Virus record (IMG/VR): IMGVR_UViG_3300043596_000010
Location: 1-54,313 of that record
Origin: a virus
Taxonomy: Duplodnaviria > Caudoviricetes
Strand: one strand, 5' to 3'
Length of the DNA: 54,313 nt
Part shown: positions 13,800 to 31,420 of the stretch, piece after piece
Position numbering within the stretch: the first letter of the stretch is position 1
Layout of the letters: each line of letters begins with the position of its first letter
Program-made: the position numbers and the translations under genes
The notes under the pieces: generated by a model
What the model was told of the DNA's origin: nothing
Seen by the model: the letters and a program-made list of their open reading frames with translations, nothing else
Database searches by the model: none

Positions 13800-15188
13800 T
13801 CACGAAAAATGTTCTGGCGCAAGCACTCGCCTAAACCACGCCCATGAAATTTCCAGTTGATCCTTTCGGGTTCGGTCGATCGTATCTCGGGCCATGAAAT
13901 CTATAACCTGAACAGCATTCTTTTGCCCTATGCGGTGTAGACGATCCTCGGCCTGTTCATTAGCCGCAGGAGGGTGCTGACGGTCGAAGAAGGCCACCTT
14001 ATTGGCAGAGGTGAGCGTAATGCCCACACCGCCAGCTTTGATGGTGCTGGAAAAGATTCTAGTTTCACCTTCTTGGAACCGGCGTACGAGTCCACCTCTT
14101 AGCTTCTGTGGTGTCTCACCAGTTAACTTGCTGTGGCTAATACCCTTAGCAGCTAACGCATTATCAAATAAGTTAATCATTTGACTAAACTGACTAAAGA
14201 ACACAAATTGCTCATCTGGGTGATCCATAATCAATTCAATTGCAGCATCAATCTTGGCACTTGGATGCATCATAAAGGCTTTACCATTACGCATAGTCAT
14301 ACAGGCATCGGCAAATTGCTGCATGCGTTGATGCTGCACAACAACAATGCTACTCGTTAGTGGTTGATCCTCATGTTCACCAATCCAAGAAAGCATCTGC
14401 TTTTTCATACTCTCATATGCACGTCTCTGTGCCGGAGCCAATTCAACTTGGATTGTGCTGTAATATTTCTCAGGCAAATCTGGAGTTACTTCTTCCTTCA
14501 AATGCCTAACAGAGAATGGCGCAATTCGTTGCTGTAGCTTCTTTTCCTTATAGCGTTGCTCCGGCCCACGACCTAAAGCCTCAGCCTCATTAGGCTTAAG
14601 AATCTTAACGTAGCCATAGCGATCTTCGGCCCACAGGATAAACTCCTTGCGAAATCGGCCATAGGCTCTATATTCCCTCTTATCGAGCCAGTTAAGAATA
14701 CTCCACAACTTGTCTGGTGTAGTTGTATAGGGCGTTCCAGACATTGCTGTACGAAACTCAGCTTGAAGCTTTTTTAATGCGATTGTCTGTGCAGCCTTTT
14801 TATTCTGCGCCCTGTGGCACTCATCTGCAATTACATGCCCCCACTTAACCTTAGCCAATTCAGGCATAAGACGAAGGGCATCCCAATGCATGATGTAAAC
14901 TTCTGCATCTTGCTTAAGAAAGAGCTCACGTTTCTTAGGATCAATCCTACGCACGTTTGGCGTAATAAGCTTGAAATGGTCTTCCCAATGACTTAGCACA
15001 GACAACGGAGCAACTACCAGCGTTGGCTTAGAAGTCTTCAAGCTGACATCAATAGCGCTAGCCTCGAACGTCTTACCGGTGCCCATGTCATTCATAATCA
15101 AAGCATAAGGTAAGCCACTATTGGTTAGCTTTTTAACGTCAGCTTCTTGAAAGGGCAAGAGTTTAATAGTCAATGTCACCCTACCCAA
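13800..15188 (-). CDS. SNF2-family helicase
   Basis: DMGTGKT, IADECH, SGTP, GGVGITLT, QAEDRLHRIGQ. Confidence 0.92.
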   Translation of the reverse strand: MGRVTLTIKLLPFQEADVKKLTNSGLPYALIMNDMGTGKTFEASAIDVSLKTSKPTLVVAPLSVLSHWEDHFKLITPNVRRIDPKKRELFLKQDAEVYIMHWDALRLMPELAKVKWGHVIADECHRAQNKKAAQTIALKKLQAEFRTAMSGTPYTTTPDKLWSILNWLDKREYRAYGRFRKEFILWAEDRYGYVKILKPNEAEALGRGPEQRYKEKKLQQRIAPFSVRHLKEEVTPDLPEKYYSTIQVELAPAQRRAYESMKKQMLSWIGEHEDQPLTSSIVVVQHQRMQQFADACMTMRNGKAFMMHPSAKIDAAIELIMDHPDEQFVFFSQFSQMINLFDNALAAKGISHSKLTGETPQKLRGGLVRRFQEGETRIFSSTIKAGGVGITLTSANKVAFFDRQHPPAANEQAEDRLHRIGQKNAVQVIDFMARDTIDRTRKDQLEISWAWFRRVLAPEHFS

Positions 15189-17565
15189 CGCACATAATGT
15201 TCTGGATTACCTGGTGGGTTGCGAGGCACACGTCGAATAGACGTTGATCCATCGTATTCGTCTACGTAATATACATGCTCATTAGTCCAAATAATGACGT
15301 CATGGCAATCTTGGCTACCAAAACCAGCGTCATATTGATAGTTTAACGCATGTTTGGCAGTATCCCAACCTACAAGCGAATTAATTAACTTATTACCCGC
15401 TTGAAAACGTTCATCTCGATTGTAGCCGTAACCGCCTGGCGATGTTATTAAAACTGCCTGTATGTGCTCACTGCCAACAGCGTTTAGAATATCGCTTGCA
15501 AAATTTGGCATTTAGACTCCCCAATGCTTAGTAAACTTAGGGTGGTTCGGCCTAGTTGTAACTACCTTACCCCAAGTAAGTTTTACGCCACTGACACGGG
15601 CAATTAAATCTACATAGTCCTTAAAGCATTGCTCATCATATATAGCCTGCCAATTAATAATCACCGTACTTCATCTACAAAATTTGCCATCAATGATTCC
15701 TTTTTTCGACTATCTCCAAACCCTTATCGTCAAGATCTGCAAAAAACTTTCTTACTAGCCTATCGGCTTCGTAATCTGAATAGTTATCACGAATTAGTAG
15801 GCTAAACAAACTCAGAATGGCCCTACTTGTGGGAACAGTCATAGGCGGCTTAAAGTCATCCATCATGTGGCCTCCAATTAATAATCATACTCCATCAATA
15901 CGATTACTAACCCAACTAATTCAAATTTACCAAAGATTACACGTACAAACTTATCTGCCTCGTATTCTTCATAACCTTCCTTTACCAACTGTTCACGTAA
16001 GATAACATAGGCTTTGTCCATAGCAATACTCATAGCTAACTCCAATCATCCTTCATGCGAGCGCTTTAAATCTTCCTGATCCCATGTTTCAGGCATATAC
16101 ATGTCATCCCATTTAATCCAACAAAAACGTCCCCATTGGGCGACCACCGTACCAGGTATATGGCCTTCCCAATTCTTAGGGATAACTTGCTCTCCAAGTT
16201 CAGGCTTCAACATACAAATCTCCAAACGTAATCTCTGCCTTAGGCGTTAATAGGGTTAAACTATTAGGGCTACACTTAGCAATACCGCCACCAAACTTAA
16301 GTTGGTCCAGTTCAACTACCCAAATTGGCACTATATGGCATAACTTAGTTTTACGGAGTAAAACTCCTGTGTGCTCCTTAAATGGATAACCATTAATACG
16401 AACCTTATCACCGACTTTAAGCTCTTGCTTTGTCACTTTCTTGGATCCTCAGTTAACTTATACATGGAAAACTCTCTCCGTGGAATAGCTAAGCGAATGG
16501 CTTTAGATTCTGCCTCTCGCATTGTGCCAAATGGCCCATACCAGCCCTTATGTTTCTCACTGTGGACCTTTAACCACCAATGTCCGGGTGTGTGGCGACG
16601 CATATTTAATCCTCAACCTCTGACATCTTAAATAGTGTTTCTGCGTAGTCACGCAAGGCTGGGTCGGGCTGCTTTGAATCCCAACTCCTAAGCTTTCGAT
16701 TCGCTGTGGCTCCGAGAAACGGCCCAGCGTCAACAGGTAGACTCTGCTCATTTAGCTGCTTAATGCTTAAGCGTCCTGTAGGCTTAATCTCAATATGGCT
16801 AATATTTTGCAACGGAAACTCCAATCTACCTTCAGCATGATTACTACCAACGTAAATAAGCAGTCGATTAGGGTACGAAGCATACTTCCACCCACATTTA
16901 ATTGAGTAATATTCTGTATGCTCATCTAAGAACGTAATTGCAATTTCAGGTCTCATTATTTACCTCGTCCCAAGCATCATTAAGTAAGCGGGCCTTATAG
17001 AATTCTGGATATCGAGACTTCTCATTAGCAATGAATCTGTACGCCTCAGCCTTATTAAAGGTTGCCATATCAGGATCGCCAATTTGTACCCAATGCACAC
17101 TTAACTTATTGAGGCAAGGTGCATACCAGCACTCTTCAAACTCGTAATGGGGTAACTTAAAATATACAACCCACAGGCTACGCATGTCTTTGCGATTATA
17201 GCCTAGTTCAGTCTTACGAACCTTGCCGGTTTCTAGTAACTCACCAAAGCTAATCATACTATGCCCCTTTCAGCATTTAATTGCATTACCTGCTCTAAGT
17301 AAGCAATAATGATGCTGGACTCATCGCCGTCGCCATCAACGTCAGCAGGATCAATACCTAATTGATCGGCAATCCAATCTACAATATCTTCAATGGTCTT
17401 AGCCATTTCTGTGGATTCCTCTGGAATATTCATGCTGGTGCCCCACATTTCTTACAAATACGCACCGTCTTACCATTCTCCGTTACTTTAATATAAACAT
17501 GATGTCCACCAGCACAACCTTCACCGCCCTGTGGGTCCTGATATTGGCCACCGCCTTTACGTTTA

Positions 17566-19546: not shown

Positions 19547-20102
19547 ATTTTTTAGTAGCTCCGTCGGTATGTAATTGTTAGGTCGTTTTCAAACTTGTAA
19601 ATAGCTTCTGTAAGCAAACCATTTTCAAATGCTGCACCCACAGGGTGTGTGGTATCAATCCAAACCGTCTTGGTTTCCACCTTAGTATATTGGCCCTGCT
19701 CGCCATTACGGCGAGTCTGAGTTGCCATATCCAGTTTAATCCTCATCAGACTCCCTATAGTAAAGGGTTTCCAAATCGGCATCTGTAGTAAGAGTACTAA
19801 TCTGGACTAAGGTAGGGAACTGTGCAAATAACCCAAGTATTGCATTATCAAACTTGTTAGTTCCTTCTACAACCCTACCTGCCGGCCCAATATCTACACG
19901 TAGAACAGTAAAGTCAGACATTAAAAGGCATACCTTTCCCTAGATCGTTGCTCGTATTGTACAAGTTCCATCATTGCATCAATTTCTTCGGGGTCAACGT
20001 CTGCGAAATCTTCGCCTGCCCTATACCTATTTAACCAAGTATCTAGCTCATGATCTGACCAAGATGTTATCCAGTCAATAAGCTGCAATTCTCTATCCCT
20101 AT

Positions 20103-20378: not shown

Positions 20379-22143
20379 GTTTTCCTCCTAAGTTAGATTA
20401 GTTAATTTCGCCGCTACGGGCCTGACCGGCCTGTGGGCTGGTCTAGGTGCCGGGTGCCGTACGGGGCACAGGGAACGGCATTCCGAGGGCAATCAGCCGG
20501 CGTTGAAGCTGGCGAGCACCACACCCGGCTCGACCCAGGAGGCAGCCGAACCAATTACTTCAATTTTAACATCTTTTGGATTGCACCAAGTACCCATAGC
20601 CCACGCATGCCAATTTATAAAGGTGCGATATGCTAGCCTCGGGCATGTCCAATTATCACCATCCCAAACGTAATCACCATCTGGGTGCATATGCTTTGCA
20701 TCGTACCAACTACTAGCACAGACTATGGCACTATCATATGTGTCGTAACCATTGTTAACTGTTTGCGAAATCCTGTATAAGTTTTTGGTCATGCCAATAA
20801 GCCAAACGGTAAGAGATCTTCAACAGAGTCTTGTGTATAAGCTGCAATCCAACGTGACATAAAAGTCCCGATATGATCGTAATACTCATACGTGATTACC
20901 CAAACAGTATCATCCATTAGTTATTCCTACAGGTAGTGTGCTTTGCACAGGCTTTTTCAGCCTCCGCATAGGTATTGCACTTCTTTTCCCAAATACACTC
21001 CAGGCATTGGGCTAAGTACTTACCGTCTCTACGTAACGCAATGTGTGTCATAGGCATTTTACCACTTACCGTCCTTTCGCTTAGGCGTGCCCCTACAAAT
21101 ATGATTCCGCTTTACGGTATTTGCCTCTTTCTCTGTGTAGCATAGCACAGAAAACTCGTGGCAGGTAGAGCTACTGCAAGTCACTACCCAGCCCTTTCCT
21201 CTTTTATCTACTTCTGGACCGGCTCGTTTAAATCCCATTCATTACTCACCACCTTAGCAACCCAAGCAAGTGAATCAATCCAAACTGCTTCATAAGTATT
21301 TGGGTCTTGGTTAACACTAGCCCACAGGTAGCGGGAGTGAACTCTGCCATAAGCATTAAGCAAGTCTACCAAATTAGCCGTGGCAGCAACTGCAATACCC
21401 CGGTTCACACCATGTGCTTGTGTTATGATTTCTAGCAACGTTTGCATTTCTTCAATTGGATCCATAATTAGAACCCAAGCATTCTTTGAACTTCTCGTTC
21501 AAGTGTTTCTGTTGCATCTACAAGTTGTGCAACGAATGCGTCTACATCGCCATTCAACCGCTCAACAGACTCTGCCACAAGCAATGTTATAATTGCGTTA
21601 GTCTTAGAGTCAAGCAGACTTAATGCGGTACTAGCCAAAGTAAGGTTATCGTTTTCCAAAGCCCTTGTGGCTATATTCGTTATCACGTTGAGTTGACGCA
21701 TAGCCTCAACCTTATCCCATTCAATCATTTACAGTAGCTCCGATTCTTCTGTAGCTTCCCAATGTGCAAGTTCGCCCAACGTGGCATAACGCTCTATTGG
21801 CTGTTCGTAGTACATGAATGCCCACTTATCACCTAATACCCAATCGACAAATGCCCTAGCATTCTCATAGTCAACCGCAGACACACGAACATACCCATTG
21901 GAATCAATCCAGTCGAACACAGGGTGTAACTCTTGGTTCTTACCATGTCCGTATTGAACCCCGAATGTAACGTAGAAATCTTGCATTACTACTCCTTTTT
22001 TACGTAAACGGTTGTGTACCGCTTATTTCCGTGAGTTTCTAACATAGTAAAGCAATAGGCATAATATCTTACGCCTTAATTCTTTTTGTGTAATTATTTT
22101 ATACATATATTAATTCCGCCTTTTTCCGTGGGTATTGTTAAGA

Positions 22144-22204
22144 AGGTGGGAGCCATGCGGGTGCATACTTAGGGCCGGCCCTAGCTAGAAACCGACCAAC
22201 TCCC
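22144..22204 (-). ncRNA. Putative tRNA-like structured RNA
   Basis: Closing stem GGGAGTT/GGCTCCC followed by ACC; two internal hairpins; starts 1 nt after tRNA-Lys CCA. Confidence 0.4.
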
Positions 22205-22205
22205 A

Positions 22206-22279
22206 TGGTAGGGGTATAGGGAATCGAACCCTAGTTAGCTGATTAAAAGTCAGCCGCTCTACCATTGAGCTATACCCCC
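22206..22279 (-). tRNA. tRNA-Lys(UUU)
   Basis: Full cloverleaf, anticodon loop CTTTTAA, T-loop TTCGATT, encoded CCA. Confidence 0.93.
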
Positions 22280-22305
22280 AAAATGTTCCCATTTTATTGC
22301 GAAAC

Positions 22306-22416
22306 GGTAGGCGCATTTTGCTTGCAACTGGCTCATAGACAGCTTTCGCCACCTAATCTTTATGCTACAGGTATTGCAAGTACCTGGTCGGTGTACCATA
22401 CCCGACATCTCCTACC
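22306..22416 (-). ncRNA. Putative multi-stem pseudoknotted RNA
   Basis: Closing GGTAGG/CCTACC, three hairpins including a GAAA tetraloop, loop CTTGCAA complementary to downstream TTGCAAG. Confidence 0.6.
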
Positions 22417-22493
22417 TGGTGCCCACAGAGGGATTCGAACCCACACTTAACGGGGCTTAAAGCCGTTGCCTCTTCCGATTGGGCTATATGGGC
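22417..22493 (-). tRNA. tRNA-Leu(UAA), short variable arm
   Basis: GCCCATA/TGTGGGC acceptor, loop TTTAAGC, GGTTCGAATCC, CCA; C-C mismatch at base of anticodon loop. Confidence 0.85.
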
Positions 22494-22500
22494 AAAACCA

Positions 22501-22896
22501 TTAATGATGCATTTTACCTGCACAAGATTTACTACAGTATGGTCCAGCACAACCACGCTTTACTTGATTCTCTCTATACTTAACCATGTTTACACTAAAT
22601 TTTGTGTTGCAGGTAGGACAAACACAGGCAATAAACTTAGCTTGTCGCCCAGCTTGCTCAATAGCTTTTATATTGTTTTGTGCGCGAGTTAAAAGCTGGT
22701 AATTTTCCACTACATCATTACCACAATCACCATCAATATGATCTACTTGCTCCCAAGCATCTAATTTTCTTCCTAAATACTGCTCCATTAAATATCTTGG
22801 ATATGACTGTGTGCGCTTAGTTTTTGTTACTGTATCATAGTGAATTACAACACTTCTACCATCTTGTCTTTTATATGGCCCATAAACCTTTAACAA
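22501..22896 (-). CDS. HNH homing endonuclease (likely TTG start at 22896)
   Basis: YPRYLMEQYLGRKL..EQVDHIDGD..ND..EN; C-terminal CPTC...CSKSC; AGGAG 5 nt upstream. Confidence 0.85.
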   Translation of the reverse strand: MLKVYGPYKRQDGRSVVIHYDTVTKTKRTQSYPRYLMEQYLGRKLDAWEQVDHIDGDCGNDVVENYQLLTRAQNNIKAIEQAGRQAKFIACVCPTCNTKFSVNMVKYRENQVKRGCAGPYCSKSCAGKMHH

Positions 22897-22900
22897 AGTA

Positions 22901-22932
22901 ACTCCTGTGTATACCGATTCCACCATGCGGGC
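22901..22932 (-). pseudogene. 5' fragment of a tRNA-Leu-type gene
   Basis: GCCCGCA TG GTGGAATCGGTATACAC A = acceptor 5' strand plus Leu-type D arm; breaks off into HNH gene. Confidence 0.7.
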
Positions 22933-23176
22933 ATTGTGTGCTAGGCGATAGCTAGCCTACGAACGTAGTCCTACACTATTCTTACCTATCGGTTAACGAC
23001 CTAGCACAAAAAATTAATTGTTACGATCCATGTGTGCAGCCGCAACTGCCTTATCAGGATTCTTATTAGAACATCTAGGGCCTACCGTGCCACAAATATT
23101 GCAGATTGCTTGGCAGGCTCGGGTGCCATTGTGAATGTGTACAAGGTGCAGCGCATTAGGATCACGCTTTTTCATT

Positions 23177-23392
23177 TTACTTACACATTTCTTCTGTAAA
23201 GATTACAAAGGCCCTTTGAACGCTAATGTAGGTGCCCGGTGCGATTGTCATATAATAAGATCGTATATGGTCCCTATAAGTGTCAGCGAATCGCTCTGGG
23301 TCTACAACCCGATCTGTGTTTGCATCATTACGCCCAAGAGCGTAGAAATAAGCTGCGATTCTAGCTTCGTGTTCTACGAGTGCAGCACTCAT
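23177..23392 (-). CDS. Hypothetical protein, AYxYAxGxxD paralog family (start ATG 23392)
   Basis: Motif shared with 23741..23929 and 25887..26135. Confidence 0.65.
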   Translation of the reverse strand: MSAALVEHEARIAAYFYALGRNDANTDRVVDPERFADTYRDHIRSYYMTIAPGTYISVQRAFVIFTEEMCK

Positions 23393-30725: not shown

Positions 30726-31420
30726 TACTAACTCATTAAGAGCAGTAGTGCTAGTCGTGATTACTTGAAATGTCGTATTTCAATTTCTGACCTAGCAAGC
30801 TCAACGGTGGCAGACGAGATAGTGATTATGTTGGCGTTTCGTCCTAATATGTCAAGTCTGGCAGATTGCATATGCCCGAATTTCCGTGGCTGAGGCAACT
30901 GCTCGCACCGTGTCTAACGTTGCTAGGCAAGGTTCGGATTCCGTCTTAGCTGGTAGTTTGGATCTGGGGAGAACATGTCCGTTTGCATTGCCGTTGCCGG
31001 TTGCGTACGGGGCCGATCAATCCCTAGTCAGTGACTAGCTCAAGAATTCAACCTCTAAGACCTCGGGTTTAACGTGCCAGGTGCAACACGGTGATTCAAC
31101 CAGCTATTGCTGGCCTACAGGGGTAGGTGGCCAAATGCTTGTGGAATGCGATTCGATCTAGGGCCTTTCCGCTTGCCGTTTCCCTTACAGACACCAAGTT
31201 AGCAGGTCTGGGGCGATGGGGCGACAAATTTGGGTACTTTCTTGCGGAACCGCATTCCGCCCCCTCAGGGGGCCTAGGCGGCCCTGGAAGGCCCTGGAGC
31301 AGTGGTAGGTCCTGCCAGCGCTGGAAGGCCAGCGGAACGCCGTTCCGGGGCGTATGCGGGGATGCTGGCTGGGGCTAGCCCCTGGCACCCTACCCCTAGG
31401 CACCCTACCCCCACAGGGGT

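Follow-up and report, generated by a model that had tools for sequence, protein, structure and literature searches.

Gene order at the tRNA locus and the helices of E1

The DNA analyzed here, referred to as the window, is the complete virus record IMGVR_UViG_3300043596_000010 from IMG/VR, which has a length of 54313 bp and an estimated completeness of 86%. Its minus strand codes for two tRNAs, tRNA-Leu(UAA) and tRNA-Lys(UUU), and each of these is directly followed by a stretch with a predicted fold which is closed by a stem at its ends (Table 1). The 111-nt stretch behind tRNA-Leu is referred to as E1 and the shorter one behind tRNA-Lys as E2. We tentatively interpret E1 as a spacer module which may define the 3′ boundary of the tRNA preceding it.

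The encoded CCA of tRNA-Leu occupies positions 22419–22417, and the first G of E1 is position 22416, that is, CCA+1. A multibranch RNA flush with this CCA had been proposed in an earlier note, made from the letters of the window alone, and its placement at 22306–22416 on the minus strand agrees with ARAGORN, Rfam, and the sequence. All helices which that note described can be read. The closing stem and three hairpins are supported by computed pair probabilities (0.4–1.0), but a stem GCAU/AUGC is not (0.08–0.09); it is absent from the minimum free energy (MFE) fold, where other weak pairings are found instead. The structure as originally described has a free energy of −27.2 kcal/mol compared to −32.1 kcal/mol for the MFE fold. 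The helix order resembles a cloverleaf, including a 7-nt loop.

This loop, CUUGCAA in hairpin B, has a mean unpaired probability of 0.78. Also as described earlier, it is perfectly complementary to the segment UUGCAAG near the 3′ end of E1, and the two may form a 7-bp pseudoknot. The mean unpaired probability of the segment is just 0.40, and weak competing pairings are present. At the DNA level, hairpin B is an 18-bp palindrome with a single interrupting C. By eye, UAUGG/CCUAAG had been considered as a GNRA receptor; this was dropped, the strands not being in a receptor arrangement.

Table 1. Features of the tRNA region of the window and of tRNA regions from related phages. L numbers denote records of related phages.
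Feature	Record	Position	Strand	Evidence or remark
HNH endonuclease gene, directly upstream of the tRNAs	window	22501–22926	−	phrog_14913, E 1.2e-20; Pfam HNH_3, E 2.1e-6
tRNA-Leu(UAA), CCA encoded, short variable arm	window	22417–22493	−	ARAGORN; Rfam 51.7 bits; lineage tRNA model 60.3 bits
E1, 111-nt stem-closed multibranch element	window	22306–22416	−	sequence; MFE fold
E1 closing stem, 5′ strand GGUAGG, at CCA+1	window	22411–22416	−	pairs with 22306–22311, probability 0.98–1.0
E1 closing stem, 3′ strand CCUACC	window	22306–22311	−	pair probabilities
E1 hairpin A, GUCGG/CCGAC, 10-nt loop including AUGGUA (D-loop-like)	window	22387–22406	−	pair probability 0.86–0.87
E1 hairpin B, CAGGUA/UACCUG, 7-nt loop CUUGCAA (22374–22380)	window	22368–22386	−	pair probability 0.62–0.72
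E1 GNRA (GAAA) hairpin, 8 pairs including 3 G-U	window	22336–22355	−	pair probability 0.40–0.70
E1 segment UUGCAAG, complement of the hairpin B loop, candidate 7-bp pseudoknot	window	22321–22327	−	direct reading
26-nt tail separating E1 from tRNA-Lys, small hairpin inside	window	22280–22305	−	fold of the whole 137-nt spacer
tRNA-Lys(UUU), CCA encoded	window	22206–22279	−	ARAGORN; Rfam 76 bits; lineage tRNA model 73.9 bits
E2, second structured stretch	window	22147–22205	−	MFE fold
Stem-closed module 0–4 nt after tRNA gene	L160	509–634		
Stem-closed module 0–4 nt after tRNA gene	L161	8186–8260		
Stem-closed module downstream of tRNA	L170	tRNA 2461–2550	−	
Stem-closed module downstream of tRNA	L163	tRNA 14766–14851	−	
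Aberrant tRNA-like genes	L086	1501–1620; 1718–1856		
Aberrant tRNA-like gene	L111	2825–2928		
Aberrant tRNA-like genes	L088	1502–1585; 2207–2309		
Aberrant tRNA-like gene	L089	1386–1525	−	

The window carries a siphovirus-type gene set (polymerase, primase, helicase, terminase, portal, capsid, and tape-measure). Its capsid protein shares at most about 30% sequence identity with any phage record, so that the phage is remote from all isolates. Two DNA sequencing runs, both from one soil sample, contain the stretch (no RNA run was among those listed), and no sequence variants of it occur in the contigs of these runs. E1 is embedded in a run of small genes, all of which are encoded on the same (minus) strand. 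No sigma-70-like promoter was found in the region 21900–23300, where 3.8 would be expected. The shared strand and the lack of promoter-like sites are compatible with co-transcription. The HNH gene, tRNA-Leu, E1, the 26-nt tail, tRNA-Lys, and E2 (in minus-strand order) may constitute a small tRNA operon and would be part of a single precursor transcript. Downstream of E2 is an A+T-rich spacer of ca 160 nt, with the next gene from position 21986. The anticodon stem of tRNA-Leu(UAA) contains a C-C mismatch which adjoins the anticodon loop.

Closed folds at the 3′ ends of both tRNAs

The window was scanned on both strands, at every start position, for closed multibranch folds (perfect closure by at least 6 pairs, length 50–130 nt, closure retained in the MFE fold, at least 2 branches). 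Such folds start at 778 of 108526 positions (0.72%). For both of the two tRNAs, a closed fold starts exactly at CCA+1, with none at the other offsets from −3 to +3. Multiplication of the 0.72% background gives a joint chance of about 5e-5 for this coincidence. The tie to the tRNA 3′ end which the earlier note had proposed is thus accompanied by a statistically unusual placement. A second comparison concerned the pseudoknot candidate: in only 10 of 2000 dinucleotide shuffles of E1 does a hairpin loop of the MFE fold find a perfect complement, 7 nt or longer, elsewhere. Both criteria are generic but were fixed after the data had been seen, so the two tests are suggestive.

E2 begins with the base after the CCA of tRNA-Lys, at offset 0. 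It has a 7-bp closing stem and a 5-bp hairpin whose 3′ strand leads directly on to that of the closing stem. In the MFE fold, this results in a continuous stack of 12 bp (7+5), followed by CC; as predicted, the geometry is that of a tRNA acceptor/T minihelix. The second hairpin of E2 (9 pairs, rich in G-U, 7-nt loop CUAGCUA) forms on the tRNA strand only. E1 and E2 thus both carry a 7-nt loop consisting of a C and a palindromic hexamer with a central GC. This shared design is largely due to inverted repeats which run through the hairpin tip. With a model built for E2 (R2), nothing convincing was found in the records of related phages.

Known RNA families, ribozymes, and similarity to tRNA

E1 had been described as unassigned, and the Rfam search concurs. 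At the gathering score, matches in the window are restricted to the two tRNAs, with none in E1. When the region 22000–22700 was searched at E ≤ 10, nine matches were obtained, none of them inside 22306–22416 on either strand.

HDV-like ribozymes have the helix order P1-P2-P3-P1′-P1.1-P4-P2′, a nested double pseudoknot in which the partner of P1 is found shortly downstream of the cleavage site. In E1, the sole complement of bases 1–6 is at bases 106–111, beyond three hairpins, and nothing between these bases and tRNA-Lys would pair with a P2 strand. The mismatch with HDV topology which the earlier note had pointed out is thus confirmed by the base 1–6 partner at the extreme 3′ end, and on direct reading the helix order rules out an HDV-like or theta ribozyme. 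E1 has no HDV-type match in Rfam; the presence of a dedicated theta model in Rfam 15 was not checked.

A new self-cleaving ribozyme which cuts between the CCA and the first G of E1, or a mimic which absorbs anticodon nucleases via its anticodon-like loop, would account for the candidate pseudoknot and for the exact position at the tRNA 3′ end. Theta ribozymes are described as lying no more than ±5 nt from the ends of phage tRNAs, tRNA-Leu being a frequent case, and a role in 3′-trailer processing is postulated by the authors (PMC10879173). This premise of the earlier note is therefore well founded. The phage also encodes tRNA-Lys(UUU), a known target of anticodon nucleases. We nevertheless consider both roles quite improbable, and neither finds support: E1 matches no ribozyme family in Rfam, the order of its helices does not allow an HDV fold, and it has no conserved relatives, whereas the known self-cleaving classes are all widespread. 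Its likeness to tRNA is not measurable (see below), and E2 folds differently at the equivalent place. The earlier suggestion of a ribozyme or decoy is thus not upheld.

Another explanation is that E1 (and E2) are relics of tRNA genes from a larger array. This would account for the cloverleaf helix order and for the abutment on the preceding tRNA. An acceptor-like stem is followed by a hairpin with AUGGUA in its loop, as in D loops of the lineage, and then by a loop of 7 nt, of which the second is U and the sixth a purine. Related phages have 21–37 tRNAs together with several aberrant tRNA-like genes, and the closing stem of E2 is followed by CC. We consider this origin improbable because similarity to tRNA could not be detected by several approaches. 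Rfam gave no tRNA match to E1 at E ≤ 10. A lineage tRNA model (R3), built on 68 tRNAs of related phages, scores 73.9 bits for tRNA-Lys and 60.3 bits for tRNA-Leu but finds only a local match of 1.9 bits (E 3.2) in E1, confined to the anticodon-like arm, and no match on the tRNA strand of E2. The resemblance of the hairpin B loop to an anticodon loop, noted earlier, thus carries no weight. In bacterial mode, ARAGORN did not call E1 even with the score threshold lowered to 60–70% of its default (-ps). E1 is called in mitochondrial mode alone, which is noisy, with 16 calls over 700 nt. Aligned locally to tRNA-Lys, E1 scored 14 compared to a shuffle mean of 15.2, the best stretch being AUGGUA of hairpin A. 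Neither E1 nor E2 exceeds shuffled queries in local alignment to the tRNAs of the window or to those of the relatives. When aligned to the 155 tRNAs of the relatives, the best score was reached by 43 of 100 shuffled E1 queries and by 78 of 100 shuffled E2 queries. A derivation of E1 from tRNA is thus unsupported by Rfam, ARAGORN, R3, and alignment. By any test run, E1 is neither a tRNA nor an HDV-like or theta ribozyme.

Search for homologs

Homologs of E1 were searched at the level of nucleotide sequence, with a model built for E1 (R1), and with motif patterns. In INPHARED, megablast with a 3 kb query gave no match. A blastn search with 421 nt matched 552 records, none of which covers at least 80% of the query, and the matches listed (20) are all to tRNA parts. 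The 137-nt spacer matched one record, with an E-value of 1. Close phage relatives were not found in IMG/VR via the 85-aa neighbor, the capsid protein, or the HNH protein, nor in metagenome contigs via the HNH protein.

More distant relatives were accessible via the capsid protein, for which there are 481 homologs at E ≤ 1e-20; the best non-self matches, P0002 (on a contig of 54465 bp) and P0003 (on one of 26137 bp), were found only in Logan assemblies and both show 61% sequence identity. IMG/VR contains 301 capsid-relative loci with 50–56% identity, 80 of which were kept for examination, and R1 was run on the 49 of these 80 records which are longer than 10 kb. This resulted in a single partial match (E 0.14). 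With filters switched off, the best scores in ca 115 kb of tRNA regions from relatives were 11.8–14.5 bits, and no homolog was detected; the top match is antisense within a 532-aa open reading frame (ORF). BLAST comparison of the tRNA region with 23 whole relative records retrieved tRNA parts and three short chance matches in the range of E1; one of these was inspected and proved unrelated.

Pattern searches were equally negative. A 19-mer had no match in IMG/VR, and the loci retrieved there with two gapped motifs (2 and 43, respectively) were not confirmed by R1. A gapped motif occurred in at least 119 stretches of metagenome contigs, with no confirmation by R1 among the 80 loci tested, and at four loci in genome contigs, again with none confirmed. 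E1 is thus an orphan without detectable relatives in the collections searched.

The same region contains a 49-codon ORF (22259–22408, minus strand). The frame is open, a Shine-Dalgarno-like AGGAG is located 9 nt before its second, internal ATG, and many neighboring genes are tiny and Cys-rich. That this codes for a small protein is nevertheless barely credible. The frame extends ca 21 bases into tRNA-Lys, and chance alone should leave about one frame in 10 open over 49 codons. A search of 1.84 billion representatives gave four matches (E 5e-6 to 6e-5), all to proteins of 249–1048 aa with 4–7 matched stretches each. In the aligned match (P0121), a 19-aa stretch of 23 bits is repeated four times, which inflated the score. 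The ORF has no Pfam match, and a coding role was rejected.

tRNA regions of related phages

The scan for closed folds was extended to 14 tRNA regions of the relatives. Of 155 tRNAs called by ARAGORN, 17 have a closed fold which starts between −3 and +6 relative to the tRNA end, compared to a background of 0.84% per position; some of these 17 are simply the next tRNA of the array. Others are modules of 75–129 nt with 9–17 perfect closing pairs. Such closures are far too long for chance; the modules may represent stems for RNase III-type processing or else small elements with inverted repeats. Stem-closed modules behind tRNAs thus recur in the lineage, without sequence shared with E1.

Three relative records (ca 53–55 kb) carry aberrant tRNA-like genes of 84–140 nt which have canonical acceptor, D, and T arms but 30–84 nt in place of the anticodon arm. 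They score 35–53 bits with the Rfam tRNA model, are missed by ARAGORN, and all have CG, not CCA, after the discriminator at their end. The inserts of two of them (L086 1718–1856 and L089 1386–1525) are homologous, having conserved blocks in common. A literature search on tRNA-like RNAs with replaced anticodon arms turned up no paper. These genes share with E1 the lineage (capsid 50–56% identical), the setting in a tRNA region, a similar size, and a stem-closed, tRNA-shaped architecture. They differ in that they retain canonical D and T arms and their Rfam tRNA score, while E1 has neither arm and no score. The E1 model R1 does not find them.

Several further peculiarities were encountered in the tRNA regions of the lineage. 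In L087, a 52-kb relative, two tRNAs with the anticodon CTA (amber suppressors; 1335–1408 and 1494–1566) are located directly behind an HNH-like gene, which is a hint of stop-codon recoding in that phage. They are followed by a 123-nt module with 10 closing pairs and then by a tRNA-like gene (ca 1699–1772) in which the D and anticodon arms are fused into one hairpin. The tip of this hairpin (CUAGCUAG) is the same 8-mer as the tip in E2. The Leu (caa, gag, taa, tag) and Tyr (gta) tRNAs of the lineage (L158–L171 and the window) have a length of 71–77 nt and thus short variable arms, and tRNA-Leu(UAA) of the window belongs to this type. Bacterial Leu and Tyr tRNAs have long variable arms. In the tRNA array of L164, a 103-kb relative, a motif built around the palindrome GGCGCC (GGCGCCUA) recurs several times in the spacers at ca 14480–14600, 15448–15562, and 19559–19677; its copies result in apparent closing stems and may represent a repeated regulatory or processing signal. 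ARAGORN reported a four-base anticodon (acca) for L089 2360–2436 (minus strand) and a two-base anticodon call (tc) for L170 2461–2550 (minus strand). These tRNAs may be of a frameshift type or simply aberrant.

Other structured stretches in the window

Two further stretches of the window attracted attention. At 799–911, there is a hairpin of ca 20 pairs with runs of A and T on its flanks; its MFE is −54 kcal/mol (z −7.6), and none of 200 shuffles was as stable. As predicted, it looks like a bidirectional intrinsic terminator. A G+C-rich island at 31252–31401, where gene orientation switches, is not convincingly covered by any long ORF; its fold (−75.7 kcal/mol) is not above that of shuffled sequences (z +0.56).

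E1 as a possible tRNA 3′ processing boundary

The reading which we favor, with somewhat less than even confidence, is that E1 is a co-transcribed spacer module which sets the 3′ boundary of tRNA-Leu, that it possibly serves as a handle for RNase P, and that it is released in a way similar to RNAC and RNAD of phage T4. From the arrangement of the locus, we infer a single precursor, a cleavage site, an enzyme, and a stable product as follows. E1 would fold independently, with its 6-bp closing stem starting right behind the CCA of tRNA-Leu. Stable helices bring 3′ exonucleases to a halt, and in packed tRNA transcripts the units are separated when RNase P cuts the downstream tRNA at its 5′ end. 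With a helix directly at CCA+1, 3′-to-5′ exonucleases would be unable to trim back to the tRNA, so that its 3′ end would need an endonucleolytic cut at the foot of the helix. The likeliest enzyme would be the host RNase P, which would handle the acceptor-like closing stem as if another tRNA of a packed array followed. A cut by RNase P at the start of tRNA-Lys (its 5′ end) would then free E1 as a stem-protected by-product of about 111–137 nt. Pairing between the CUUGCAA loop and the UUGCAAG strand would compact the module.

Several observations weigh against this reading. The MFE fold of E1 has a z-score of −0.97, with 36 of 200 shuffles at least as stable, and the values are similar for the whole 137-nt spacer (z −1.32) and for E2 (−24.1 kcal/mol, z −1.04). 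The fold of the E1 antisense strand (−31.6 kcal/mol, z −1.73) is equally good or better, so that three of the E1 helices could equally be inverted repeats at the DNA level. Neither of the models R1 and R2 finds the other element or a further copy in the window. As no homolog of E1 was detected in any collection, there is no covariation evidence. A fold which does not exceed shuffled controls and the lack of homolog covariation had been named in the earlier note as what would speak against a functional RNA, and, as far as the comparisons were run, both were observed. With respect to RNase P, substrates are recognized by a coaxial helix of ca 12 bp from the cleavage site and a single-stranded 3′ tail, ideally NCCA. 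E1 offers a 6-bp closing stem, a weak stacking stem (0.04–0.10, the best probability of any T-like pairing, so that a T-arm is lacking), and G-UUU as 3′ tail. With no T-arm and with G-UUU in place of NCCA on its 3′ flank, E1 would, by the customary rules, make a poor substrate for RNase P. The handle idea is probably more convincing for E2, in which a predicted stack of 7+5 bp is followed by a CC tail. Finally, RNAC and RNAD are transcribed RNAs, whereas E1 is known from DNA sequence alone.

The main rival is that E1 is an ordinary inter-tRNA spacer which does no more than keep the genes apart, with helices as they occur in any 111-nt sequence at 50% G+C. We consider such a chance fold unlikely but to be taken seriously. 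It is in line with the energies just described, with the equal folding of the antisense strand, with the lack of homologs, and with the unsupported GCAU/AUGC helix. In addition, a stricter, E1-type criterion (90–130 nt, at least 3 branches) yields 263 candidates among 108486 positions, and many closed folds elsewhere in the window surpass E1 in energy per base. What chance does not readily explain is the closed fold at CCA+1 behind two of two tRNAs, compared to the 0.72% background, and the rarity of the 7-nt loop complement among shuffles.

The folding of the antisense strand also bears on the possibility that the signal resides in the DNA, with the hairpin B palindrome, a third copy of TTGCAA, and the palindrome CTAGCTAG in E2 being protein-binding or regulatory sites. 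Hairpins A and B as well as the closing stem consist entirely of Watson-Crick pairs, and the hairpin loops are palindromic. We consider this possibility highly improbable: the GNRA hairpin, the sole strand-specific helix of E1, does not form again on the antisense strand; like the long hairpin of E2, it needs G-U pairs and occurs on the tRNA strand only. The lack of sigma-70-like promoters in the region does not favor regulatory sites either, and the element models find no motif repeats elsewhere in the window.

Comparison to known systems

Returning to the processing-boundary interpretation, the closest known systems are RNAC and RNAD of phage T4 (species 1 and 2). These are small non-tRNA RNAs which are located among phage tRNA genes and co-transcribed with them, and their roles are given as still unknown (PMC3014915; PMC9697503). 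E1 would resemble them as a non-tRNA stretch within a phage tRNA cluster. RNAC and RNAD are conserved among T4-like phages, whereas E1 has no relatives.

Like theta ribozymes, E1 lies no more than a few bases from the 3′ end of a phage tRNA, in this case a tRNA-Leu, and the job which is postulated for theta ribozymes is to free this end (PMC10879173). E1 lacks their nested double-pseudoknot order and any HDV-type match in Rfam, and its phage is from soil, whereas theta ribozymes were reported from gut Caudoviricetes. If it served the same purpose, E1 would be a structure recognized by a protein or by RNase P and not a catalyst.

The third comparison is to tRNAs and other substrates of RNase P. 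E1 has a closing stem at the CCA junction, cloverleaf-like hairpins, and a 7-nt loop, and E2, as predicted, resembles minihelices in its continuous 7+5 bp followed by CC. E1 differs from tRNA (RF00005) in lacking a T-arm, an NCCA end, and measurable similarity. At present, E1 is best viewed as a new orphan in a known kind, the small structured RNAs or spacers in phage tRNA clusters, with a possible role as a tRNA-associated RNA.

A more far-reaching version is that E1 and E2 represent new tRNA 3′-end devices, namely tRNA-shaped non-tRNA handles which are flush with an encoded CCA and allow release with one cut by RNase P (or another helix-measuring endonuclease). The loop of E1 would be locked by the 7-bp pseudoknot, and the 75–129-nt modules of the relatives would be further, sequence-unrelated examples. 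We regard this version as doubtful. The formation of tRNA 3′ ends in phages is poorly understood, and theta ribozymes are a phage-borne solution in some of them. If the version held true, the E1 and E2 handles would be a structure-based, ribozyme-free counterpart of theta ribozymes, and stem-closed modules flush with the CCA would be a simple design rule for tRNA arrays.

For now, E1 is one orphan sequence, and its statistics are borderline. It is chiefly of value because it points to a soil phage lineage with odd RNAs in its tRNA regions, including tRNA scaffolds in which the anticodon arm is replaced, amber-suppressor tRNAs in a pair, and Leu and Tyr tRNAs with short variable arms.

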